Source: a phage. Taken from it: a stretch of DNA of 64,000 bases. This document shows, piece after piece, positions 2,563 through 49,268 of this stretch (its first letter is position 1; each line of letters starts with the position of its first letter). The notes beneath the pieces are model-generated. The model searched no databases. It was not told the DNA's origin and worked only from the letters and a program-made list of their open reading frames with translations. The translations under genes were made by a program, and so were the position numbers. The DNA is taken from the NCBI GenBank assembly GCA_027262695.1, contig GCA_027262695.1_4722.1; one strand, 5' to 3'.

Positions 2563-3060
2563 CTACGCTGAGACCGCCTGCATGGATACGTACATGACAG
2601 GCTGCTTGCACTTTCATGCAAGAGGAGACTATATCAAACCGGCAGCTTCACCTTCTCGATCGTATCGAGAATGCGGTGCTGAAGTATTCTTCAGCAGCAC
2701 CTGCTACGGTAACCTACACTTCGAAGACGCTTGTCCTCTACAGGGTGGTAAATCCCTTAGTCGTTGAACCTGCGTTGTTTCCCATTCTTGGTTGCAAGAA
2801 TGCCGTATTACTACGCAACAACCAGGCTGCTGATTGCCCATTGTCTCGCACCTTAGCACCGCTTACGCGGCTTTTCTTTCAGCCTAAGCCTCTTACGGAG
2901 GTAGTGCATCTCAACTGTTGTTTCTGCCTTTCGGCACCCCATGGGTCGTTGAGCTTTAGGGGTTCCCAGCAATTCGTAGGTTTTTCAAGCACTCCCTTTC
3001 GGGAATACCGGACAACTTCCCTTGAAAAAAGTCTTTATTTTTCAAGGACTTATCCCCGCC
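2563..3060 (-). ncRNA. candidate group I self-splicing intron (boundaries approximate)
   Basis: Minus-strand core elements in canonical order: P AATTGCTGGGAA (2974-2963), Q AATCAGCAGCC (2835-2825), R GTTCAACGACTAAGGG (2769-2754), S GATATAGTCTCC (2635-2624); R GACTA pairs with S TAGTC (P7). No ORF >60 aa on this strand across ~600 bp between two long same-frame ORFs. Confidence 0.6.
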
Positions 3061-4518
3061 GAGTCCCTGGAGGTACGGGCTCGGAATGCAAACCGTTTCT
3101 ACGAACGATGCTTTTTGTTTCCAATCAGGGTATTCCCATGCGATATATCGTTCGTCAGTAATCGGTTCCCAATTACTATCAAGTTCTGTCTTGGGAGAAG
3201 CGTTAACGGTTGTACGCGCATAACAGGTTAACGGAATGACTGACTGCATGCCCGATACCGGATAACGTGTTACCATCGCAGCCAGGTTGTTCCAGTATTT
3301 ATATCCTGCGATATAGATAAGCTCAGTATAAGTAATGGGGTGAACATCCGCACCAGGTTTGTTAAGCATCTCTGGCGGTATTTCACTCATACCGCGGAAA
3401 AGTCGGAATGAATCGTTGTTTACATAAACCAAACAGAGATAACGACCATTCACCATGATAGGTTCGTTACGTACGCCTGGATCGCTTAGCGTGTTCAATA
3501 AACGTTCGATACCATCCCAAGTAGTAAAGTCATCGATGGTGTCAGGATCAAGTACGACTCGTTCACGTTCCATCGTTTCGGTATCGATAAGCTCAACCTC
3601 GGTAACATCACGGACGAAGATCTCTTGCAAAATACCAGTACGTAATGCGTGTTGCGTTATCGGAAGGGCTGCTTTGCTCATCTGGTATAGACCAAGCTGT
3701 ACAGATGTACATGACGTTTGGTTTGGAGAACCGAGAACCTCCGTTGTGGGGTTAATTGCCGAAATAACGTTACGGGTTGAGTTCCAAACACGACGTGAAC
3801 CGAACTTACCTTGGAAGATCCCTTTCTTACCCTGGAACATATCCAACAGCAATGCGTAGATATCATTGAAGGTTCTTTGCAGGCTCCAGCGCTGTCCGTC
3901 GTAGACAGGATCGTTGTAGTCCTTTAATCCATCGGGAACGGTATTGGAGATAGCAAGGAAACGACGGTAGAGCTCCGTGATTTCTTGTTCGCTTTCATAC
4001 CCGCCTTCCTTTACTTCTATTTCACGAAGACCAGCAGGTAACACCAATAAATGACGGGTCATCGCTTTGAACATGTTTTCTTCGACAACTTTAATACGCA
4101 GTTCTCGTTGCGCTGAACCTGTTGAAACGAACTTGATCTCCGCAACGTGTTGTGCGAAGAAACCGTAGCCGGTTTGTCCCGTTAATGCGTCAGCAGCAAC
4201 GAAATCACGCTGTTCTGGATCCCATCGTGCATAAGCTTTACCGGACATGATATCGCCATAAAGGTGTTTCAATCGAATAAGGCGATCGTAAATGACCGGA
4301 TGCAAGATTTCCACTTTACACTCGATGACCGCAAAGCGGCGATCACGATCTTCACTACCCGCACTCCCAAAGATGGTGTATGAATAAAAACCATCATCAT
4401 GGAAATTACCCGTACTCGGGTCACGGATACTCATGCTGGTAATCTTAGGAAGGAAACGCAACTGCTGCTTATCAAGATGCAGTATACTGATATTGAACGG
4501 CTCTCTGACTTTAGCCAT
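2956..4518 (-). CDS. hypothetical protein, putative 5' exon of intron-interrupted gene (last ~30-45 codons before the stop at 2956 are probably intron read-through)
   Basis: ORF track 2956..4551; start moved to ATG 4518 (MAKVREPF) preceded by AAGGAG with 7-nt spacer. ORF continues through the intron P element into a stop. Confidence 0.55.
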   Translation of the reverse strand: MAKVREPFNISILHLDKQQLRFLPKITSMSIRDPSTGNFHDDGFYSYTIFGSAGSEDRDRRFAVIECKVEILHPVIYDRLIRLKHLYGDIMSGKAYARWDPEQRDFVAADALTGQTGYGFFAQHVAEIKFVSTGSAQRELRIKVVEENMFKAMTRHLLVLPAGLREIEVKEGGYESEQEITELYRRFLAISNTVPDGLKDYNDPVYDGQRWSLQRTFNDIYALLLDMFQGKKGIFQGKFGSRRVWNSTRNVISAINPTTEVLGSPNQTSCTSVQLGLYQMSKAALPITQHALRTGILQEIFVRDVTEVELIDTETMERERVVLDPDTIDDFTTWDGIERLLNTLSDPGVRNEPIMVNGRYLCLVYVNNDSFRLFRGMSEIPPEMLNKPGADVHPITYTELIYIAGYKYWNNLAAMVTRYPVSGMQSVIPLTCYARTTVNASPKTELDSNWEPITDERYIAWEYPDWKQKASFVETVCIPSPYLQGLGGDKSLKNKDFFQGKLSGIPERECLKNLRIAGNP

Positions 4519-4691
4519 GGATGCACTCCTTAAATAAGGCGGCGGTATCATCTGAACACATGAGAGACGTAATGGGTGAAGCCATCACCCATCGCTTCCC
4601 TGCTTGATGCGAGGAAGGTATTAAATTACGTACCTGTCCGATGGCCTCGAACAGGCGATGTATGAAGCTATGCTTCAATTTGGAGGTATAC

Positions 4692-7600
4692 ATGGTAGAT
4701 AAAACCCGTGTTGAGGGTGATGATAATTGGGATAACTGGGATGAGGACTTCTCCCTGGATCTCGATTTTGATGAACCCAAAGACGACCGTAAGCCCATAA
4801 CCCGTTATGCAATAGGTGTCGCCAAAGGGGCTGCTGAAGATCTTACTTCCTACGAAAGAATGAAGGAGATCGCCAGAAACGCATTACCTAAGGGTTATAG
4901 CGACGGTATGGATCTTATCGATTCCGCCGTCGGATCCACGAAGGAACTATACAATGAAGCCGTTCGTGACATTCTTCCGAAGGTACAAAGCTCAAAACGG
5001 TTAGCCGCACAACTGACGAAAAAATACCGTGCGAGCATGCCCGATTTCTCGAAGAAAATTATCGAGCGTTGGGAGCAAGAAGCCAAGGAAGAAGACGAAC
5101 GTAAACAGGCGGAAGCCGATCTTAAACAACGCATGGCGAATGCAGGTGATGAAGAAATCGCTCGCAAGGTCGCTGAGGCGTTAGGAGAAGCGGCTAACCA
5201 GAACGCGGATCAGTTTGCAGAACAACAAGCAAAAGAAAGTATCCGTGACGATATTGCTGATAAACGTTATAATGTCACCAACAAACAGATGAGCGCGATG
5301 CAGGAAGGCATCGCCAAGATGGTTGGTTTCAATAACGAATTCGCCGCACGCTATATGCGTAAAAGCCTGGAACTAAAATACCGTTCTTTGGCGATACAAC
5401 GCGCGAGTTTCGATCAGCATAAAAAGTTAGCCGAAGTCTATATCGGTTTATTACAGAACATCCAAAAGAACACGGCTTTACCGGATGCGGCTAAAGCAAA
5501 AATGTCGGAAGAATTTCGTCGCACAGCGTACCAACGTTTCTTTGGTAACGCATTGAATGCGATGAGTTCTTTCGAGAACCGTTTCTTTGCTGATGTTAAG
5601 AAAAACCTTGCAACCAATGCGTTGGGTGCGTTGAAAGGTGTTGTGTCTGGCGCACACGACGCCCTCTCCGGTTTAAACGAAGCACGCGACTCGATGTCCA
5701 TGATGGACGGTATGGGGTCAGAAGGCGATATTAAGGAAATGCAAGGGAAGATGCTGGGTCAGTTGATCGGCTCAACCGTTGCACCATGGATGGCGAATAA
5801 AGGCATGACGGCATTGCGGGATTTAGCAAAACGTCATCCTAACGCTAAATTCGCCAACGCGTTAAAAGCGGTCGATCAAGGCGGTGAAGCTGCTGCTTAT
5901 ACAACGCGTAACGTTGGGAAACTGCTGCAAGAAGATCTTCGTAAAAACGAATTCAACCTCAGCGATCCCTTCTACAAACAGTTCCTGCGTGGGGCTGGAC
6001 GTTGGGCCTTCAATCTGGACGGTGGTCGTAACTTCCGTGTGATGAACGACACCGCGGAGACGTTAGCTGAACAAACATCTTTCGATGGTTTAACCTATCG
6101 TAGCATCAACGAGGTCATTCCCGGATTTCTTGCTCGTATACTGAAAAGCACTGAAGGTATCCGTACCGGTGAAAATGATCCTGATTACGAGGTCTATGAT
6201 GGCATCAGCGGGCAATTCGTTGCTCAACGTACCCGCGAACAAGGTGTAACCGACACCCTCTTTAACAAACGTTCGTTCGGTTATTACGCCGGTCGTTTTA
6301 ATGAAGTTATCTCGGTTATCGATCCCGATAAACAGCTGTCAGAAAAGGCAAGGAAAGCCTTGGCTAAACAGTTAGCACGCGACAGCGATGCGAACATGGC
6401 TTTCGATCCTGCTCGATATACCGACGAAAGTAACTTTGATCGCAGCATCGATAGAGACGCCATTAAAGAACTTTCTGCGTATTTCAAAGATCGTTACGGC
6501 ATTCGTGACGATGTTGATGATGAAGGTAACCGTCAACAGGTTATTGAAAACCGTGGGCAGTACTACACGGAACGTAACCGCGCTGATCTGCGGTACGGTA
6601 ATCTGAAATCCTTGCAGCCGGATATCCAACGCAACCTTAACCTTCTGAAACGTACCGGTGATGTTCAATACCTGGAACGCATCGGGATCGTAACAAGAAA
6701 CAGCGATGGCAGTTATTCGGTTAATCACGATCGTTACTTCTCTGAAATCGATCAATACATCGACCGACCGGAATACGCTGACCGTGGTGATGTTAACACG
6801 CGACTCAGTGCCCAACAGACCAGGGCGTTGGCGTTAGGCTATCGTGACGACGTTGCGTCAAACGCTGACGTACAAAATCGTGCGTTACCAAACCTCGATC
6901 GAACAACGGTCGGAACGGTAAACATCGATGAGAACATCGGATACGAGAAATGGTGGAACGATGCGGGTGTTATCACCACATCGCTTGAAGACCAAAATCG
7001 AGCATGGCAAGAACTCTATCTTGAAGCGCTTCAGGAAGCTTCGCATCAACGTGAAACGATGCTGGAACTTCTGAAAGCGATCTCAGAAAAAGAATGGGGT
7101 GGTAGCGGCGTTGGCCGCCAGGGCGAACCTGGCGGTGAAGAAAGTGATGATCGCTCTATGTTAGGTCGGATCTCCGACCTAACACTAGGTAAAGCCGGTA
7201 GCTATGCCTGGAAAGGTGCAAAAGGAGCTGCCAAGTTCGGATGGAAATGGGGTCGAAAAGCGGCGACATGGGGCGCAAAACGTACGTGGGGAAGCTTCGT
7301 AAACTCAGCGCGTCGAATTATCAACTTCAACCGTTTTGTGTTCGGTGCGTTATCCAAGGTCGATCAAGTTCCGTTTGACATTTACGTTAAAGGTGAAGAT
7401 CGTCCACGTATCTTAGCTGCAAAACTTCGTCAAGGTCTGTATTTCGATGAAGCCACCGGCAAAGCCGTCAAACGGATGAAGGATATTAAAGGTCCGTTAG
7501 TTGATGCTGACGGCAACATCGTCATCAGCGCTGAAGATATCGAGAAGGGATTGATTACGCGCGCTGGACGTGCCTTCGAAAACTCCGGTTTGAAAGCATG

Positions 7601-10600
7601 GGCACGTGAAGGTATCAACGGCATCACCACGGTATTAAGTTTACCAAGACTTTTAAAACGCGGTGCTACGGAGCTTTACAAGCATTTCGATAAAACACCT
7701 GACGTATACGTGACTGGTGAATCCACTCCACGTCTGCTTTCTCTGGTGATGGCGGCAGGCGGTTATTTCCGTAAGTCCGATGGGAAAGTCATCAAGCATC
7801 TGGAAGACATCGACGGTGATGTGGTTGACGCACAAGGAAACGTCATCCTGACCCACGCTGATATGCAGAAAGGGTTGGTCGATAAATACGGTAAGAAGAT
7901 ACGTCGCCTGAAAGAAAAGCTGATCAACTTCGGTGTGAAAGCTTTCACCTTACCGTTAACCTTATTGCGTAAGACAAAAGACATCCTGAAGAATCTCCCC
8001 ACGAAAGCCATGAACGGGTTGCGTCGTATGGGCCTGAACTTCCGTTTACCGGAAGAGGTGCTTATCGGTACAACCGCAGGCATGGTGGATCGTCTCGACG
8101 CTATTTATCAGCTTCTTGATAAACGCATGCCAGGTGGGGATAAGGATTATCGTGATTGGAACGGTGATGGTGTTCGTGAAGGATCGCTTGAAGATCTGAA
8201 ACGTAAACGCGCTGAGAAAGAAGGAGAAAAAGGAGAAGGTACAGGTAAAGGATCCGGGAAAGGAGAAGAGAAGGAGAAGAAAAAAGGAATTCTTGGGAGC
8301 CTTTTCGACATGCTTGGTGACACCGCACTTGGTAAACGTTTAATGGCGAGTCCGCTTGGAAAGATTCTGGGTGGCCTTGGATCCATTCTCAGCGGTGGTG
8401 CATCATTAACGGGGTTACTTGGGAAAGGTTTGCTTAAAGGCTCAGGCGCACTCCTCAGAGGGGGTTTAAGTGCTGCGGGTTGGTTAGGACGTGGTGCCCT
8501 GATGGCAGGCGGTGCTGCGCTTAATGCGGTAGGAGGATTATCCGGGCTTGGTGCTGCGCTTATCTCCCCGGTTGGGTTAGCGATTGCGGGCGGCGCATTA
8601 GCTGCCTATGCGGGTTGGAAAATCTATCAACATTTCGCTGATAAGCCTGACCCGATGCAGAAACTTCGTCTTATTGCATACGGTGCAAAAGGGGATGATA
8701 AGGACTTCAACAAGAAGTTATTGCAAACCGAAACCTACCTTACCGACCATGTGGTCATGACGGGAGATACCATCGGATTCAATCCAAAAGCAGATTCTGA
8801 AAAGATTCTTGAAATCTGGGAACTGTCATTGGAAGATACTGACCGGATGAATGAATGGAAGCGCTGGTATCTACATCGCTTTATCCCCGTTTTCGCTCGT
8901 GCGTTTAAACTCTGGAAAGAGCACATGCCGGACGAGAAGAAGTTCATGGAGATGGACGACTACCCCAACGGTGAGAACAAAGTCAAATGGTCAGAAGCCT
9001 TCATCTGGCCATCGGATAGTCCAGACAGCCCGTACTATGTTGAAGCTAACCCGTTAGGTTCGGCTGGCGCAACGTTATACATCGCGGGACAGGATGTTAA
9101 AAAGCTCATGGAAAGCCAGCTGGAAGTCATCAGGAAGGAATATCAAAACCAGATCAAGAAATACACGCACGATGAAGCGATTAAAGACTGGTCGAAGCTG
9201 TCTGACGCCCAACGTAAGTCCGTTGCGCCTAACGCGTTACGTGGACAGAAAGCCTCTTTACGTTTCAGCGATAACAAGTATAACAGTGCGGGTGTTAAAG
9301 GTCGTCAGAAACTGGACGCTACTGCGGTTGTTGAAAGCGTGGATCGTCGCGGTAAGAAATGGATGGCCGGTGGGTACATCGATGAACTTACCAGTTTACG
9401 TATCCGCGCCTACGGGTTAGAGGTTCCGCTGTTAAGCCAAATCAAGGTATTGATGGAACTGGAAGACGCGGTTGAACCTGGCGTTGTTGCTGAAGGTAAA
9501 GGCGTCAAATACGGCGGTAATCTCGCGGAGCTGTATAAGAAGTTCGCATCGAAATTCGGTCGGGATGTCAACGGCAAACAAGACCAGAACATCTGGTTTG
9601 CCTGGATGAACAACCGTTTCTTGCCGGTCTTCTTAACGTACTATCAGCAAGTTGGCGAGATGGGCGGACAAGGGCTGTTATCAGATGTTGTACAGAATCT
9701 GAAAGACAGCCAGCGTTGGGAAATCGGTGAGGCGTTGGTTGCTGCGCAATACAAGGATGAGAAGGGTGCGCTACAGCCGGTATGGTCGTGGAACAGTTGT
9801 GGTTTCTCTGGCACCAAAGCAAACATGTCCAGCAGTTCAACCAAGAGCCAACTCGATCTGTTAAAAGAATACGCAGATAAAGAGAAGGTTCGTGAGAAGA
9901 ACGCTGAAGCATCGCAGGAGGATGAAGATAAATTATCGAAAATCCAAGAGCAGTTGATGAAGCAAGCGGGATATGAGAAGAAGGACGGTGTTTGGCAGAA
10001 GAAATCACGTATCACGGGTGGGATGAGCAACGCGGAGGCGAACTACAATCCGAACCGTAACGAGGTTGGCAGAAGTAGCTTTACTGCTTCAGCAACCTCC
10101 AGCGCAGGTTTGGGTAGTGGTGGACCGGATATCACCGGGTTACCGAACATGGGACTGAAGAAACCCGCATCAGGTCCTGGTCCAGAAGCGGGTCGTCGTG
10201 CGGCAATTAAATCAGCGGTGAAGCACGGTATTACCGATCCGATGGAAATGGCGATGTTCTTATCGAACCTCGAACATGAATCCGGTAACTACAGGTATGT
10301 CCGCGAACTTAACTACACAAAACCCGACAGTCTGAAGAAAGCGTTCAGTCGTAAATTCAGGGATGAGCAGGACGCTGCCCAGACCATCAGCATGGGTCCA
10401 GAGGCGGTATTCGAACGTGTGTATGGAATGCGTAAGGATCTGGGAAATACCCAGAAAGGTGACGGAGCGAAATATCTGGGGCGTGGTTATATCCAGGTTA
10501 CAGGTAAAGCCAACTACGCACGATTGTCGAAGATCCTGAATAAAGATCTGGTTAGCGATCCATCGTATTTGGAAACCCCAGAAGGTGCAGCCGAAGGGAG

Positions 10601-11363
10601 TGTTGCGTGGTGGCTTAACAGGGGTAACGTATTACGCGATCCCGCAAAGCGTGGCGATGTTCGCCAGGTTCGTTACCTGGTTAACGGGGGGTATAACGGG
10701 CTACGCGATGTTGAGCAACGTTCAGCGTATTGGATTCAAGCTGCTAAAAGCGGTACATTGAAGAAAATGATGGATGAGGTTGCAGGTTCAACCTCAGACG
10801 ATCAAGCTGAAGGTCCGTCTACCGCCAGCCAAGTGAAGAACGAGGAGGCGCAAGAAACCAACAGCACACCAACATCAAGCAACGATCCGCAAGCACCGTC
10901 GGCAACCGCGACGCCTGAAGTCAAACCGTCAGCGGCCTCCGGTACCGCACCGGCACCCGGAACGGCAACACCGACACCAGGAAGTTTCGATACCGCAAAA
11001 GCTGCTGCTGGACAACCAGCGTCAACACCAGCGCCTAGCGAATTACCGTCAAACCCTGGTGCAAATCGAGGAATTTCAGTTCCAAATACACCTGCACAGG
11101 TTGCGCAGTCCGCAACACAAACATCGGCAGCAAGTGAAAACTTCTACGGTAGTGCAGGTGAGATTCTTCGTCAGCAGTTGACCGTGCAACAAAACATCGA
11201 GAAGAACACCGGTAAGACCAACGAACTGATCTCAGAATTGATCCAGGCTGTTAAAGGATCAACGATCGGTAAAGGTTCGACAGGATCTTCTCAACAACAG
11301 ACGATGTCGCTACCTAATCGTCCGCAAGGAATCTCTCCAACACGGACAAGGTACGCGCAGTAG
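4692..11363 (+). CDS. giant virion-associated protein (tape-measure-like) with GH19-family lysozyme/chitinase-like domain
   Basis: 2240-aa ORF; start set at ATG 4692 (GGAGG 5 nt upstream), giving 2223 aa. GH19-like motifs LEHESGN and KYLGRGYIQVTGKANY...SVAWWLNRG (about 10200-10750); Gly/Ala/Leu-rich hydrophobic segment about 8287-8630; Pro/Thr/Ser/Ala-rich tail about 10840-11140. Confidence 0.6.
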   Translation: MVDKTRVEGDDNWDNWDEDFSLDLDFDEPKDDRKPITRYAIGVAKGAAEDLTSYERMKEIARNALPKGYSDGMDLIDSAVGSTKELYNEAVRDILPKVQSSKRLAAQLTKKYRASMPDFSKKIIERWEQEAKEEDERKQAEADLKQRMANAGDEEIARKVAEALGEAANQNADQFAEQQAKESIRDDIADKRYNVTNKQMSAMQEGIAKMVGFNNEFAARYMRKSLELKYRSLAIQRASFDQHKKLAEVYIGLLQNIQKNTALPDAAKAKMSEEFRRTAYQRFFGNALNAMSSFENRFFADVKKNLATNALGALKGVVSGAHDALSGLNEARDSMSMMDGMGSEGDIKEMQGKMLGQLIGSTVAPWMANKGMTALRDLAKRHPNAKFANALKAVDQGGEAAAYTTRNVGKLLQEDLRKNEFNLSDPFYKQFLRGAGRWAFNLDGGRNFRVMNDTAETLAEQTSFDGLTYRSINEVIPGFLARILKSTEGIRTGENDPDYEVYDGISGQFVAQRTREQGVTDTLFNKRSFGYYAGRFNEVISVIDPDKQLSEKARKALAKQLARDSDANMAFDPARYTDESNFDRSIDRDAIKELSAYFKDRYGIRDDVDDEGNRQQVIENRGQYYTERNRADLRYGNLKSLQPDIQRNLNLLKRTGDVQYLERIGIVTRNSDGSYSVNHDRYFSEIDQYIDRPEYADRGDVNTRLSAQQTRALALGYRDDVASNADVQNRALPNLDRTTVGTVNIDENIGYEKWWNDAGVITTSLEDQNRAWQELYLEALQEASHQRETMLELLKAISEKEWGGSGVGRQGEPGGEESDDRSMLGRISDLTLGKAGSYAWKGAKGAAKFGWKWGRKAATWGAKRTWGSFVNSARRIINFNRFVFGALSKVDQVPFDIYVKGEDRPRILAAKLRQGLYFDEATGKAVKRMKDIKGPLVDADGNIVISAEDIEKGLITRAGRAFENSGLKAWAREGINGITTVLSLPRLLKRGATELYKHFDKTPDVYVTGESTPRLLSLVMAAGGYFRKSDGKVIKHLEDIDGDVVDAQGNVILTHADMQKGLVDKYGKKIRRLKEKLINFGVKAFTLPLTLLRKTKDILKNLPTKAMNGLRRMGLNFRLPEEVLIGTTAGMVDRLDAIYQLLDKRMPGGDKDYRDWNGDGVREGSLEDLKRKRAEKEGEKGEGTGKGSGKGEEKEKKKGILGSLFDMLGDTALGKRLMASPLGKILGGLGSILSGGASLTGLLGKGLLKGSGALLRGGLSAAGWLGRGALMAGGAALNAVGGLSGLGAALISPVGLAIAGGALAAYAGWKIYQHFADKPDPMQKLRLIAYGAKGDDKDFNKKLLQTETYLTDHVVMTGDTIGFNPKADSEKILEIWELSLEDTDRMNEWKRWYLHRFIPVFARAFKLWKEHMPDEKKFMEMDDYPNGENKVKWSEAFIWPSDSPDSPYYVEANPLGSAGATLYIAGQDVKKLMESQLEVIRKEYQNQIKKYTHDEAIKDWSKLSDAQRKSVAPNALRGQKASLRFSDNKYNSAGVKGRQKLDATAVVESVDRRGKKWMAGGYIDELTSLRIRAYGLEVPLLSQIKVLMELEDAVEPGVVAEGKGVKYGGNLAELYKKFASKFGRDVNGKQDQNIWFAWMNNRFLPVFLTYYQQVGEMGGQGLLSDVVQNLKDSQRWEIGEALVAAQYKDEKGALQPVWSWNSCGFSGTKANMSSSSTKSQLDLLKEYADKEKVREKNAEASQEDEDKLSKIQEQLMKQAGYEKKDGVWQKKSRITGGMSNAEANYNPNRNEVGRSSFTASATSSAGLGSGGPDITGLPNMGLKKPASGPGPEAGRRAAIKSAVKHGITDPMEMAMFLSNLEHESGNYRYVRELNYTKPDSLKKAFSRKFRDEQDAAQTISMGPEAVFERVYGMRKDLGNTQKGDGAKYLGRGYIQVTGKANYARLSKILNKDLVSDPSYLETPEGAAEGSVAWWLNRGNVLRDPAKRGDVRQVRYLVNGGYNGLRDVEQRSAYWIQAAKSGTLKKMMDEVAGSTSDDQAEGPSTASQVKNEEAQETNSTPTSSNDPQAPSATATPEVKPSAASGTAPAPGTATPTPGSFDTAKAAAGQPASTPAPSELPSNPGANRGISVPNTPAQVAQSATQTSAASENFYGSAGEILRQQLTVQQNIEKNTGKTNELISELIQAVKGSTIGKGSTGSSQQQTMSLPNRPQGISPTRTRYAQ

Positions 11364-11373
11364 TCATTAGTTC

Positions 11374-11395
11374 GGGGTGGGGAATCCCCACCCCC
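11374..11395 (+). terminator. GC-rich hairpin between the two large plus-strand genes
   Basis: GGGGTGGGGA-atc-CCCACCCC stem-loop immediately after stop of 4692..11363. Confidence 0.4.
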
Positions 11396-11412
11396 TTCTT
11401 GAGGAATGGTAC

Positions 11413-13554
11413 ATGGGTATTCTTGTTCAAAACGCCCTCATCACAAAACAAGCCTTTTTATTACCCGGTGACAGCAGCACGCTTAGTGCTGACATGATTA
11501 AAGCGAGACATACACCCTATTCCTACGATAACGTCGATGATACAACACTGGGTGGTAACTGGGTACTTAACCCGCCACCGCAATATACGAAATTTGCTGA
11601 TATCAAAGAACGACGACGTGCGGTTATGCCTGGATCAACGGGCATGGGTCGAGGCTATAGTGAAAGCATCAACAGCTTTAAAGAAGTTGTTACCTTACGA
11701 TTCGGTAAACCGCGCTTTACCGGCGCAGCTATCTTCTTTACTGACTTCTACGACGCGGATGTTGCGGTTACCGTGAAAACCGGTCGCGATCCCGGTATTC
11801 TTTATTACGCCGCCAAAGCGTATACCACCGTGCTTTCTTACCTCACACCGTTACCCTATATCTACATGCTGGGTCGTATCGGTCGATACTTCATGGGCAA
11901 ACCGACCAGCCAGTATTATTATCAAGTACCGACCATGCACGTTTATTGGTCTTCGTTCCAGACGTTGGTCAACCAAGCAGCAATAAACATGGGTATTGTT
12001 GCAGGGATGGGTAAGGACAAAGGGTACGTTGAGGAAGGCGGTACTGTACTCCACCAATTCTCGATTGGTGGTCAGGATGTTGAAGAATTCATCAACTACG
12101 CTTCTAAAACGCTCCCAGGCATTTACAAGAAAGGCGGTGGGATCGATATCTATCAAATTGCAACACGTCGTCAGCGTATACAGAACGCATGGGTTCGACG
12201 TATTCAATCCATGATGGAAAACGATTACGCGTCTTACGAGGAATTCTGGAACGATCTTGATAAACGACTTGATAGCGGCGCGTTTCCATCGGACGTTACC
12301 GGTCGTACGCTAACACAATACCTTGCTGATACACAGAAGTCTGCTGTTTACAGTGCAGCAGCAGGTGATAACAAACAGACGATGGACGACCTGTTATTCG
12401 GAAGGGCTTCCTACAGCAACAAAGATGCTGATGCTAACTTCAATGTCTCTGCTGCCACCTCCGACGGCGGTACGTCAACACATAGTCAAGGTACGACAGC
12501 CAACGTCGGTAATTCAACATCAGGGACCACACAGGCTTCAACTACAGCATCAACGGCTGGAGGTGCGAACGTACAGAGCAAAGGCATCGGGCAAACGAAT
12601 GCGGCTGAAGAAGCGACGTTCCTTGATCTGATGGATGCTGAACTGGCCGATGGTGCTCAGTTTATCAGTTTTCGAGTCGATTCCGTAACCAGTGTAACCG
12701 AAACATTCTCAAACAGTGCATCGGAAAGTTCAATCGCTCAGACGATGAACAGCAAAGCGCAAGCGAACATCGAACGGCGCTTTACGTTGTCAGGTGGTCA
12801 AACCGGTTGGGGTACGCTGGACGCGGCGATAAAGGGTGTGTCGGATACCATCAACGGTGCTATTTCAGGAATGGGTTTGGATGGTATCTTTGGTGCCTTC
12901 ATGGGTTCTGGCTTCGCAGACATTCCAAAGTTCTATTCTGGGTCATCGGTAAGCCTTCCACGTGCAGATCTGACAATGGAATTACGTTCCTGGAGTGGAG
13001 ATCGTTGGTCGATCTTTACGAACCTCATGGTACCGCTTTTAGCGATCCTTGCAGGCGGTTTACCGCAGTCTACCGGTAAATCGTCTTACGGGATGCCATT
13101 CATGTGCGAGTGTTATATTCCTGGTAAGGTCCAGATTAAAATGGGTCTTATTGATAATATCACAGTTACACGCCATGTCGGGAACGTGCCGTCAACACGT
13201 GAACGCTTACCGTTAGGTATTGATGTCAGTTTCAGTGTGTATGACCTGTCGTCGATCGTTGCAATGCCGATCACCACCACAGCAGCATCATTAGCAAAAT
13301 TGGATCCTCGTGGCTTCTTAAGTGATCTTCTTGCTGATGATACGCCGCTGAACAACTATCTTGCTGTGTTATCGGCGTTGACGCTTACCGAACAGGTTTA
13401 CATGGTCCCGGATTTAAGTCGTCGTATGCATAAGACCATGGCTGATATCGATAGTTTCTGGAGCAAAGGTAATTTTGCTAACTGGTTATCGGACACCATG
13501 CCTGGCAGGATAGCATCAGGGCTGTTATGGAAACGTACCGAACGACCGTTCTGA
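11413..13554 (+). CDS. hypothetical virion protein (follows giant protein; Thr/Ser-rich central linker)
   Basis: ORF track 11377..13554; start moved to ATG 11413 (GAGGAA upstream). 713 aa. No recognised catalytic motif. Confidence 0.55.
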   Translation: MGILVQNALITKQAFLLPGDSSTLSADMIKARHTPYSYDNVDDTTLGGNWVLNPPPQYTKFADIKERRRAVMPGSTGMGRGYSESINSFKEVVTLRFGKPRFTGAAIFFTDFYDADVAVTVKTGRDPGILYYAAKAYTTVLSYLTPLPYIYMLGRIGRYFMGKPTSQYYYQVPTMHVYWSSFQTLVNQAAINMGIVAGMGKDKGYVEEGGTVLHQFSIGGQDVEEFINYASKTLPGIYKKGGGIDIYQIATRRQRIQNAWVRRIQSMMENDYASYEEFWNDLDKRLDSGAFPSDVTGRTLTQYLADTQKSAVYSAAAGDNKQTMDDLLFGRASYSNKDADANFNVSAATSDGGTSTHSQGTTANVGNSTSGTTQASTTASTAGGANVQSKGIGQTNAAEEATFLDLMDAELADGAQFISFRVDSVTSVTETFSNSASESSIAQTMNSKAQANIERRFTLSGGQTGWGTLDAAIKGVSDTINGAISGMGLDGIFGAFMGSGFADIPKFYSGSSVSLPRADLTMELRSWSGDRWSIFTNLMVPLLAILAGGLPQSTGKSSYGMPFMCECYIPGKVQIKMGLIDNITVTRHVGNVPSTRERLPLGIDVSFSVYDLSSIVAMPITTTAASLAKLDPRGFLSDLLADDTPLNNYLAVLSALTLTEQVYMVPDLSRRMHKTMADIDSFWSKGNFANWLSDTMPGRIASGLLWKRTERPF

Positions 13555-46457: not shown

Positions 46458-47093
46458 TTATTCAGCACTGAAACCGTTCAAACGGATAGCTTCGTAACGT
46501 TTACGTTCACGACGTTTACGCGCCTGCCAACCGTAAATGAACTTCTCGTCTTTCTCACGACGTTCAGCTAATTCGATGTAATACATGCTCTGCATATCCA
46601 GCATCGCGTCGATAAGGTAATCTTTACCTTGCTCGCCACGTTTTGCGATATAAGCGTCCAACGCACCTAAGGTTTTAGGTCCCATCCCACCATCAGCGTC
46701 AATATCTTTCCAGTAAGTTTGACGGTTGTTCATGACGTTGAGGTAACGCTGGAGGTTCTTAACGGCAACGGATTTGCCTGCATTGATACCCAGATCAAAG
46801 AGACGGTCAGCTAAGAACACGGAACGCTTCATGACGTCATCAAGCTTCATCTTATCCCAGAAGTGGGTTTTGTAGATGAAGAACGCCATGTCGTAGGTCA
46901 GATTGCGCATATTACCATTCCAACCGAATTTCGTTTTCAGCGTGGTTTTGTATTGATCGGCGAGCGCTTTCGTAATTCCCATCATGGTTTCATTACCGCT
47001 GTCATCTGGGTCGTTGACGTATCCCGCCTCGATGTTGGTTTTATCACGAATGATGAATTCGCAGGTAAAATCTTTTTCAGTAATCTTGGTCAT
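46458..47093 (-). CDS. endolysin, GH108-like muramidase with PG_binding_3-like C-terminal domain
   Basis: EAGYVNDPDDSGNETMMGIT matches the GH108 motif (EGGYVNDP.D.GG.T.GIT); DADGGMGPKTLGAL matches the peptidoglycan-binding motif. Confidence 0.8.
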   Translation of the reverse strand: MTKITEKDFTCEFIIRDKTNIEAGYVNDPDDSGNETMMGITKALADQYKTTLKTKFGWNGNMRNLTYDMAFFIYKTHFWDKMKLDDVMKRSVFLADRLFDLGINAGKSVAVKNLQRYLNVMNNRQTYWKDIDADGGMGPKTLGALDAYIAKRGEQGKDYLIDAMLDMQSMYYIELAERREKDEKFIYGWQARKRRERKRYEAIRLNGFSAE

Positions 47094-47219: not shown

Positions 47220-49268
47220 TTAAATACCCTTGGTTCCTTTCACGCGGTGCGCAATTTCTTCAACCATTGCACGCAAGGCACGAAGCTGTTGGTCGTGTTC
47301 GTACCAACCGCCTAACAGAACCCCGCTATACACCATGGTGTCCAGACTTAACAGTCCTTTATCTGATACGTTGATCATTTCAGGGAACTGTTCTTGTACA
47401 CGTTGTGCGATAACACCGATCTTCTCAACATCAGGATCGTAGTCGTGACGGAAACGGGCAAGCCCGGTGTATGCCATTTCACGTAAACGATCACTGAAAG
47501 ATTCTGGATGGTCTTTCAGATAACGGATGTCGTGTTTACTACGCTCATCTGAACGGATGTATGCGTTAGGAACATCGATGTTGCTGTTGAAGTACAACGC
47601 GCTACCACCACCTGCAGAGTTACCCCAATAGAAGCTAGTAAGAATGCTACCGCCATTACCTGTAACATGCACGGTGCTTCCCACCCTCGTTCCACCGCTA
47701 CCATCAACGAAGACCAGTTTGTTTCCGCTGTAAGAACCCCAGAACAGACGACTATCGATGATGTTGGTTGCGGCGAGGCGGGCGTTACGTGGTGTAGAAT
47801 AGACGGTGTTGATATCTTGCTGCGCCTGTGCGTCAGAAGCGATACCGTAGTTCTGCACATTACCTAAACCTACTTGGGCTTTTGTAACAGCGTGAGGGTT
47901 GTCTCGACGGTTAGCGTGATTGTTAACCAGATCGCCCGCCAATTTCTGAATTGCCCAGTTGGTAGACTGTGGCGTCATGTAACGGTTAGTTGCAGAACCA
48001 CCTTGCGCCTCAGCTTGGTTAGCGGTTGGGTAGTTCTCAACGCTTCCTAACCCTACTTGTGCCTTAGACACTTGGTGCGGGTTATTCTTGTCGGCAATAT
48101 GTGCATTAAGCGGAACTAACGCGAAGGTCTCGATGGACGCTTTGGTTGTGTTCGGTGCCATTAATCGGTTAGCTGCAACCCCAGCACGTGCTTCATCCTC
48201 CGAAGCCATCGGATAGTCTTGCACATTACCTAATCCTACCTGCGCTTTGGTCACCTTGTGCGGGTTGTTGTAATCGGTTTTATGTGCGTTAAGCGGAATC
48301 AATGCGAATTGTTCAATCGCTGCAACGGTACGTAGCGGCGTCATGAATCGGTTATTCGCTGTTCCGTCCTTCGCCTCGCTATCCGAAGCGGTCGGGAAGT
48401 TATCAACGTTCCCAAGGTTAACCTGTGCTTTGGTAACGCTATGTGGGTTATCTTTACGATTAGCGTGAGCGTCGACTAGATCCCCACCCAGTTTAGCAAT
48501 CGCCCATCCAACCGTTTGTGCGGTCATGTATCGGTCAGGTGCTGTACCGGCTTCTGCCTCCGCCTTGTTTGCGGTAGGATAGTTCTGTACATTACCTAAA
48601 CCTACTTGGGCTTTTGTGGTTTCGTGCGGGTTATCGGTACGGTTAGCATGCGCGTAATGCAGATCGGTAAGGTCTTTATCCGCCGCTTGCATGTCTTTAC
48701 GTAGCTGATCGATTGCCGCCCAGAGACGGTTATCGGACGCAGCATCACCGATAAGTATTGCGGCTTTCAGCGAATAGATCGCTAAGCAAAGATGTTCGGT
48801 ACCGTAGATAGCACTAACATGGTGGATGTGTGGTTCAGGCGGATAAAGTTCCGGTTTGTTCTTGATGTCGTCCCAGTTGATCGGACGATCGTCAAGTTTG
48901 AGTTCTTCGATAGCCTGATATAACGCGTCAATAAGACTTACGTAAACACCACCGATGATACGATAGTCGTTAATTAACGTCCCCTCGATATCATCGTTGA
49001 TGATGGCGATCGCCGCACAGATTTCTTTACCTGCGTAAAGCGTCGCATCCTGATACAAGAAGATGGGTTTATAATCCACGCCTCGTACCAGTGTCTTACC
49101 GGTAAGCTTTTCAGTGATGACCAGACTTTCGGTAAAGAACGGTCCGCCATCAAGGGCGTAACATTTATTCTCGGTTCGTGGAACGGTATGCTCTTCACCA
49201 ACGATGTGGTTGCTGGCGAGTGTACCGGTCCAGTCCTCGGGGTACTTCAGGGTAATTGGTGTCGACAT
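47220..49268 (-). CDS. tail fibre protein with five NPH..TKAQVGLGNV repeats and C-terminal S74-type intramolecular chaperone domain
   Basis: Repeats about 47846-48656; C-terminal SDERSKHDIRYL...GVIAQRVQE (about 47220-47590) matches the autoproteolytic chaperone motif of endosialidase/T5 pb1-type fibres. Confidence 0.75.
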   Translation of the reverse strand: MSTPITLKYPEDWTGTLASNHIVGEEHTVPRTENKCYALDGGPFFTESLVITEKLTGKTLVRGVDYKPIFLYQDATLYAGKEICAAIAIINDDIEGTLINDYRIIGGVYVSLIDALYQAIEELKLDDRPINWDDIKNKPELYPPEPHIHHVSAIYGTEHLCLAIYSLKAAILIGDAASDNRLWAAIDQLRKDMQAADKDLTDLHYAHANRTDNPHETTKAQVGLGNVQNYPTANKAEAEAGTAPDRYMTAQTVGWAIAKLGGDLVDAHANRKDNPHSVTKAQVNLGNVDNFPTASDSEAKDGTANNRFMTPLRTVAAIEQFALIPLNAHKTDYNNPHKVTKAQVGLGNVQDYPMASEDEARAGVAANRLMAPNTTKASIETFALVPLNAHIADKNNPHQVSKAQVGLGSVENYPTANQAEAQGGSATNRYMTPQSTNWAIQKLAGDLVNNHANRRDNPHAVTKAQVGLGNVQNYGIASDAQAQQDINTVYSTPRNARLAATNIIDSRLFWGSYSGNKLVFVDGSGGTRVGSTVHVTGNGGSILTSFYWGNSAGGGSALYFNSNIDVPNAYIRSDERSKHDIRYLKDHPESFSDRLREMAYTGLARFRHDYDPDVEKIGVIAQRVQEQFPEMINVSDKGLLSLDTMVYSGVLLGGWYEHDQQLRALRAMVEEIAHRVKGTKGI

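Follow-up and report, generated by a model that had tools for sequence, protein, structure and literature searches.

The closest described relatives of the gene analyzed here come from two jumbo phages, the nucleus-forming E. coli phage Goslar and the Pseudomonas phage phiKZ. The phiKZ product gp181 is listed among virion-associated lysins for which activity has been measured, and was earlier thought to be a needle-like puncturing device (PMC5380687); that source, citing Briers et al. (2008), gives it as a structural peptidoglycan hydrolase of 2237 amino acids (aa). Transposon sequencing (Tn-seq) of phiKZ yielded zero insertions across the 6.7 kb of orf181, which is accordingly essential, and its authors named the product a 'likely tape measure'. 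In Goslar, gp204 (YP_009820915.1; HOV27_gp204 / Goslar_00232) was found in purified virions with 34 peptides and 24% coverage under the label 'Tail protein', at an estimated 5.1 copies per virion (range 3.4-8.0; 10.64898/2026.04.21.720040, Table S4). The present work concerns a stretch of phage DNA of 64,000 nucleotides (nt) from the GenBank assembly GCA_027262695.1 (contig GCA_027262695.1_4722.1; hereafter the window, meaning this whole stretch), in which the coding sequence at 4692..11363 on the plus strand is, by sequence comparison, the Goslar-clade orthologue of phiKZ gp181 and of gp183 of the Pseudomonas phage EL. The first-pass annotation, made from the letters alone, had described its product as a protein of 2223 aa combining tape-measure-like features with an embedded muralytic domain of the GH19 type. 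We consider it likely that this product is a low-copy essential virion tail protein, stored in the tail tube and serving as both tape measure and ejection protein. It belongs to the GH19-bearing branch of the phiKZ gp181 family, a branch already represented by Goslar gp204 and EL gp183.

Identity of the giant gene and its family

In the program-made listing the open reading frame spans 4641..11363, and ATG 4692 was accepted as the start because the ribosome-binding site GGAGG (4682..4686, plus strand, read from the sequence) precedes it with a 5-nt spacer and because the resulting N-terminus (MVDKTRVEGDD...) is matched in Goslar. The frame is therefore real, as had been proposed, and encodes a product of 2223 aa, 245 kDa and isoelectric point 8.9. 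As a separate observation, the annotated start of Goslar gp204 is a GTG lying 31 codons before the ATG that the ribosome-binding site supports (Goslar 11908..12000; window 4641..4691).

The gene is 81% identical to that of Goslar gp204 in nucleotides and, over the full length of the protein, 87% in amino acids, and a 99%-identical protein (P0001) is present in public assemblies. The protein matches PHROG 3201 at an E-value of 5e-301. Judged by these similarities, the window comes from a Goslar-like jumbo phage. The two proteins share the GH19 domain, hydrophobic segment, internal repeats, C-terminal tail and gene neighbours, and differ in a few indels of 1-4 aa and in aa 801-850. The match to phiKZ gp181 is more distant (about 24% identity along a colinear scaffold of the same size) and falls into two colinear blastp segments, aa 23-683 (1e-45) and aa 887-1731 (1e-34), which do not include the enzymatic module. 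The segments shared with EL gp183 (2e-48, 4e-21 and 2e-15) are colinear over aa 11-2088 and do include it; the EL protein, with 2543 aa, is 320 aa longer than the one described here. A common gene order, namely the virion RNA polymerase (vRNAP) beta-subunit gene on the minus strand, the giant gene and a tube-initiator ring gene, is found in the window, Goslar, phiKZ (gp180 / gp181 / gp182) and EL.

The 109 homologues examined range from 1700 to 3170 aa. The wall-degrading module varies among them, being SLT, GH19, M23, VanY, CHAP or another type; the family keeps a fixed scaffold and exchanges the module. Thus, phiKZ gp181 carries an SLT lytic transglycosylase domain (PF01464, above cutoff, aa 1885-1978) at the position of the GH19 fold in our protein, which amounts to a module swap, and a PF02557 + PF00182 architecture was seen in one family member (P0058). 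Separately, in the C-terminal ~300 aa of EL gp183 the segment after GH19 resembles, by eye, a metallopeptidase of the LAS/VanY type (AHPKGLALDF ... GGHIHAAF); if the resemblance holds, EL gp183 would have two wall-degrading modules.

GH19-type domain

The muralytic domain was delimited to aa 1836-2043 (10197..10820, plus strand) by sequence matches to the PDB. The three GH19 hallmark motifs reported by the first-pass annotation were all located: HESGN at aa 1862, KYLGRGYIQVTGKANY at aa 1927 and SVAWWLNRG at aa 1970. Three positions are invariant in an alignment of 77 sequences: Glu1863 of HESGN (codon 10278..10280; domain E39), Glu1872 of VRELNY (10305..10307; E48) and Thr1937 of IQVTGK (10500..10502; T113), all on the plus strand. 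By the general pattern of GH19 enzymes, these are predicted to be the general acid, the general base and the water-positioning Ser/Thr, respectively. The two glutamates are spaced as E-x8-E and align with the glutamate pair of the solved structures 7r6s and 9eoi. Over the same region, there are PDB matches to 7r6s (8e-22), the GH19 endolysin 9eoi (2e-20) and the SPN1S endolysin 4ok7 (9e-17); the domain also matches PHROG 181 'endolysin' at 1e-50. Among its 401 homologues, PF00182 is present in nearly all of the 120 listed. The AlphaFold2 (AF2) model of the domain has a predicted local distance difference test score (pLDDT) of 92.5 and adopts the alpha-rich, lysozyme-like GH19 fold.

Profile searches of the whole protein and four sub-regions against Pfam and NCBIfam gave a sub-threshold GH19 match and noise, and nothing else. 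The Talin_R4 match on the C-terminal region (14.9-19.1 bits) was rejected. PF00182 scored 16.6 bits with the whole protein and 20.2 bits (E 5.6e-4) with the domain alone, below the gathering score of 25.5, which counts against the assignment; its alignment to the giant protein covers the central motif only, and in EL gp183 the GH19 domain passes the cutoff with 32.2 bits. The expected profile hit thus fell short, while sequence, fold and catalytic residues all agree with GH19, and we regard aa 1836-2043 as a supported GH19-type domain with predicted muralytic activity. As an aside, P0110, deposited as a partial GH19 protein of Escherichia coli, is a 161-aa fragment from a contig of 484 nt that shares 94% identity with this domain; a bacterial assembly has here probably taken in DNA of a Goslar-like phage.

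Presence in the virion and probable role at entry

The supposition that the protein is a virion component is answered by its 87%-identical Goslar orthologue, the mass-spectrometric record of which is given above. Among the peptides in the available part of that record are ones at aa ~393, ~564 and ~969 and in the Pro/Thr/Ser/Ala-rich tail, including the C-terminal peptide AAAGQPTSTPAPSDLPSNPGANR, which matches the LxQQL-containing tail of our protein (10.64898/2026.04.21.720040); therefore both the N-terminal half and the C-terminal tail are in the Goslar virion. A role at entry, likewise proposed in the first-pass annotation, is consistent with the published data on phiKZ gp181 as an essential structural peptidoglycan hydrolase and 'likely tape measure'.

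The argument originally offered for entry was a different one, namely that, as there is a separate GH108 endolysin, the GH19 domain probably works at entry and not in lysis. That gene does exist (46458..47093, minus strand; GH108 and PG_binding_3 domains by domain search, labelled 'endolysin'), and it adjoins tail-fibre and virion genes. Its product is 91% identical to Goslar gp24, which was present in purified virions at ~76 copies and 41% coverage (10.64898/2026.04.21.720040), and the endolysin gp144 of phiKZ is a structural component of the neck (PMC13250141). Since both proteins are virion-borne, the presence of a second muralytic gene does not of itself separate entry from lysis, and that argument is weak; the assignment to entry is made on the orthologue data instead. 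By analogy, the GH108 protein of the window may itself be virion-associated, besides or instead of being a lysis enzyme.

Beside it, at 47220..49268 (minus strand), lies the orthologue of gp25, a tail fibre of Goslar. The product has 682 aa and carries Peptidase_S74, an intramolecular chaperone, as its C-terminal domain; by eye, it also shows a ~45-aa repeat (...NPH.VTKAQVGLGNVQNYP.A...) in about six copies.

The tape-measure question and rival explanations

Of the tape-measure-like features noticed in the sequence, the hydrophobic segment is there and long helices are predicted at low confidence. A low copy number (~5 estimated for Goslar gp204) and a gene that adjoins the orthologue of the ring proteins gp182/gp203 also suit a tape measure. 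The tape-measure role as such is inferred, and no scaling of the protein with the tube is seen between Goslar and phiKZ. By a volume estimate the protein would fit, three copies taking up 14-41% of the space in a lumen 40-68 Å wide and ~1730 Å long. Neither of the two cryo-electron microscopy (cryo-EM) atlases names another tape-measure candidate, and the spike is made of other proteins; in the 2026 phiKZ atlas the spike, tip, hub, spacer and initiator are all given to other products (PMC13250141).

We infer the location in the tube lumen, the measuring of length, the insertion into the membrane and the order of events in the following scheme. During assembly a few copies (3 or 6) would attach to the hub and the tube-initiator rings, and the N-terminal part with its long helices would serve as the core on which the tube polymerises. 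Sheath contraction and departure of the spike would then let the protein be expelled ahead of the DNA. Its GH19 domain, through Glu1863, Glu1872 and Thr1937, would then cut the glycan strands of peptidoglycan locally, letting the tube or a conduit reach the inner membrane, into which the Gly/Leu/Ala-rich segment may insert and help form the DNA conduit.

Several facts weigh against this reading, besides the sub-threshold Pfam score. The Goslar tube (46 x 39.2 Å = 1803 Å) is ~11% longer than that of phiKZ (43 x 37.7 Å = 1622 Å), yet the Goslar protein has 2221 aa vs 2237 aa in phiKZ, and the part before the hydrophobic segment is also shorter in the Goslar clade (1198 vs ~1255 aa). A simple ruler relation is therefore not seen in this comparison of two phages, which covered the whole proteins and the part before the hydrophobic segment. 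The AF2 model of aa 1-1200 has low confidence (mean pLDDT 56.5) and includes globular parts. No tail-chaperone gene pair is found upstream, the neighbour being the divergent vRNAP subunit gene; such chaperone genes with a programmed frameshift are not universal in myoviruses, and T4 is not known to have them. Phage phiKZ gp181 is neither modelled nor mentioned in the phiKZ atlas (PMC13250141), and gp204 is absent from the text and the model of the Goslar structure preprint (10.64898/2026.04.21.720040). Finally, two tryptic peptides of the GH19 domain are not among the Goslar gp204 peptides in the available part of the mass-spectrometric list, which at 24% coverage is weak evidence. Apart from these points, the ruler sum 1198 aa x 1.5 Å = 1797 Å, set against the 1803 Å of the Goslar tube, was rejected, as the same sum fails for phiKZ; the match is probably a coincidence.

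The lack of scaling between Goslar and phiKZ is what one would expect if the protein were a virion-associated lysin and membrane-penetration protein held at the baseplate or tail tip as cargo of the hub, with tail length set otherwise. The older literature indeed put gp181 at the baseplate as a 'cell-puncturing device' (PMC5380687), and much of the peripheral baseplate is unmodelled in both atlases. Nevertheless, the spike, spike tip, hub and initiator rings are other proteins and the density of the hub and inner baseplate is fully accounted for, it is hard to see where, if not in the lumen, over 1000 residues of largely helical protein would go, no other tape-measure candidate has been reported, and the Tn-seq authors named it the likely tape measure; we therefore hold this reading to be unlikely. 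The muralytic domain and the hydrophobic segment also recall ejectosome proteins, and the gene adjoins those of virion RNA polymerase, whose products are packaged in the head and injected (gp178 and gp180, both noted as 'structural head protein'); chimalliviruses inject many proteins. A head-packaged ejection protein like T7 gp16, which would pass out of the capsid through the tail and form a channel across the envelope, seems to us very improbable all the same: the phiKZ record has gp181 as 'tail-associated endolysin' with its neighbours marked as head proteins, the Goslar mass-spectrometry table labels gp204 'Tail protein', the gene is oriented as, and nearly contiguous with, that of the tube-initiator ring while diverging from the polymerase genes, and ~5 copies suits a 3- or 6-fold tail axis.

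Public databases offer yet other names, 'tail fiber protein' in RefSeq and PHROG 3201, 'putative chitinase' in GenBank and 'endolysin' for several orthologues, and there is next to no chance, in our judgement, that any of them describes the function. Fibre-type repeats and a beta-helix are absent from the protein, most of which is helix around a hydrophobic core segment, and its ~5 copies stand against 75-87 copies of fibre proteins in the same Goslar table. It is far too large, and virion-borne, for a soluble lysis endolysin. As to chitin, the closest solved relatives of the domain are peptidoglycan-active phage GH19 enzymes and not chitinases, and E. coli is without chitin. The labels 'tail fiber protein' and 'chitinase' are thus probably wrong.

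To the preferred reading of a tube-stored tape measure and ejection protein, an extension specific to Chimalliviridae may be imagined, in which the protein couples tail ejection to the early infection (EPI) vesicle as its gate or as an aid to budding. Once the wall is cut, the inner membrane at the tip of the tube would take up a few copies. These would either stay there, as a gate to the vesicle in which the injected genome is first enclosed, or assist in its budding. We regard this extension as rather doubtful. No published data placing the giant protein on the EPI vesicle were found, and a jumbo-phage review, a core-genome paper and the EPI-vesicle preprint contain no gp204, gp181 or 'tape measure'.

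Scaffold anatomy outside the enzymatic domain

The N-terminal half had been described as charged and coiled-coil. The charge is borne out (25-41% Asp, Glu, Lys and Arg per 100 aa), the coiled coil less so: helices are predicted at low confidence, with alpha/beta domains among them, and a heptad score devised for the purpose did not discriminate. For aa 1-1200, the AF2 model drew on 26 family members and places 63% of the residues in helices, which are 44-90 residues long in the stretch from aa 67 to aa 381, the mean pLDDT being that given above. A Foldseek search of this model against the PDB returned nothing below E 0.6. The charged region with long predicted alpha-helices (H67-110, H118-207, H211-259, H265-339 and H347-381; aa 35-440, 4794..6011, plus strand, as are all features of this section) has low to moderate pLDDT, conserved blocks at aa 41-120 and 200-280 and colinearity with phiKZ gp181 aa 33-679; from the model, it is a candidate for the 'tape' part.

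A compact alpha/beta domain follows at aa ~500-700 (6189..6791; AF2 block pLDDT 65-92). Just N-terminal to it, and outside its span, stands the invariant family motif ...IPGxLxRI...RTG (aa 476-493), with P477, G478, L480, I483, T492 and G493 invariant. The next part, aa 704-892 (6801..7367), is a linker found by alignment to be poorly conserved, with AF2 helices predicted at 765-801 and 837-892; inside it, the Gly-rich stretch aa 801-850 (7092..7241) is 30% identical to Goslar gp204 vs 70-100% elsewhere and has low occupancy in the family alignment, and is therefore considered a hypervariable linker.

Two internal repeats come next, unit 1, a small alpha/beta module, at aa 891-995 (7362..7676) and unit 2 at aa 999-1100 (7686..7991), both recognized by Smith-Waterman alignment and AF2. 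The alignment of the two units scored 170 (z = 28.7, 500 shuffles), whereas self-BLAST of the giant protein did not report the repeat. In unit 1, pLDDT is 74-79 at the core (aa ~901-960) and <50 at aa 963-992. Both modules are found in the family consensus. With the repeat region by itself as query against 1.84 billion cluster representatives, at least 1083 proteins matched at E <= 1e-3; among the best 150 of these 1083, a size of 1600-3900 aa and one to five matched stretches are nearly universal; since the matches are nearly all giant proteins, the family is large and the repeat module is specific to it.

A Lys/Glu/Gly-rich charged stretch (aa 1165-1198, 8184..8285; sequence and composition) leads to the Gly/Leu/Ala-rich hydrophobic segment (aa 1199-1313, 8286..8630). 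Composition (26% Gly, 22% Leu, 17% Ala, 9% charged) and hydropathy, with cores at aa 1225-1244 and 1272-1309, confirm this segment, which the first reading of the sequence had pointed out, and make it a candidate membrane-inserting region. Most of the 109 homologues have a low-charge window rich in Gly, Ala and Leu in mid-protein; the phiKZ counterpart is less extreme, with 48% Gly/Ala/Leu and 19% charged residues vs 71% and 6% here. A glycine zipper was considered for the segment and rejected, GxxxG being observed 3 times vs 7.3 expected from composition.

The conserved central region (aa 1314-1835, 8631..10196) has no match in Pfam or NCBIfam; its colinearity with phiKZ gp181 extends as far as aa 1731. 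Behind the GH19 domain, aa 2044-2223 (10821..11360) comprise, by composition and consensus, a low-complexity linker rich in Pro/Thr/Ser/Ala, an LxQQL-motif region and a basic C-terminus. With 50% Pro, Thr, Ser and Ala in the last 180 aa, the tail is as it had been described. The LxQQL motif at aa ~2160-2195, a region presumed helical, is conserved in the family, the consensus near the C-terminus being LxQQLxxQ. Similarity of the tail to those of phiKZ and EL was not significant (z 2.6 and 0.7, respectively).

Neighbouring genes

The divergent upstream gene (2956..4551, minus strand) encodes the vRNAP beta subunit, similar to phiKZ gp180 (blastp 8e-103; PHROG 2986). Downstream, at 11413..13554 (plus strand), lies the gene of a tail-tube initiator ring, orthologous to Goslar gp203 (96% by blastp) and phiKZ gp182 (7e-58), with a product of ~700 aa; in cryo-EM work, gp203/gp182 was identified as one of the rings in the tail-tube initiator complex, which has two layers and sits atop the hub. 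This gene starts 14-50 nt past the stop of the giant gene, and because of so short a gap the two are probably co-transcribed. Its longest open reading frame begins at GTG 11377, and the Goslar gp203 start is the equivalent of ATG 11413, so that 11377..11412 is in question.

On the upstream side, a group I intron was recognized at 2605..3037 (minus strand; Rfam RF00028, 58.4 bits, E 8e-13). It abuts the 3' end of the vRNAP-beta frame with ~80 nt of overlap, and the junction is near 3013-3095. Goslar differs in carrying, two genes upstream of gp204, the HNH endonuclease gene gp206, which the window is without, as it lacks the ~1.6-kb Goslar segment bearing that gene. By Pfam, Goslar gp206 is an HNH_3 homing endonuclease (with a sub-threshold NUMOD1), and so is phiKZ gp179. 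This looks like presence or absence of a mobile endonuclease gene beside a retained intron.

Meaning and comparison with known systems

By itself, the giant protein is one more sequence in a large and long-recognised family and changes little. The family as such supplies the largest virion protein of the nucleus-forming jumbo phages, one that is essential, and it was left unplaced in two whole-virion cryo-EM atlases of 2026. Its fixed scaffold with an exchanged module (GH19 here and in EL, SLT in phiKZ, M23/VanY/CHAP elsewhere) could be of use in engineering lysins and in studying how phages adapt to their hosts.

Outside the family, the nearest analogues are Pb2 of phage T5 and Tmp of the mycobacteriophage TM4, which are long helical proteins of the tail interior that bear a peptidoglycan-degrading module and hydrophobic segments and are ejected at infection. 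Both belong to siphoviruses; their function as rulers has been demonstrated, and tail-chaperone genes precede theirs. The giant protein has no detectable sequence homology to either of them, and unlike them it belongs to a contractile tail, exceeds by 2-3 times the length that the tube calls for and has a putative ruler function; the muralytic character of T5 Pb2 as a tail protein is on record (PMC5380687). The enzymatic domain, in turn, is akin to free-standing GH19 enzymes of 180-240 aa, such as the SPN1S endolysin (4ok7), that of P. aeruginosa (9eoi), KTN6 gp46 (8p8e) and the type VI secretion system effector TseP (8xcl), but differs from all of these in its placement near the C-terminus of a structural protein of 2223 aa.

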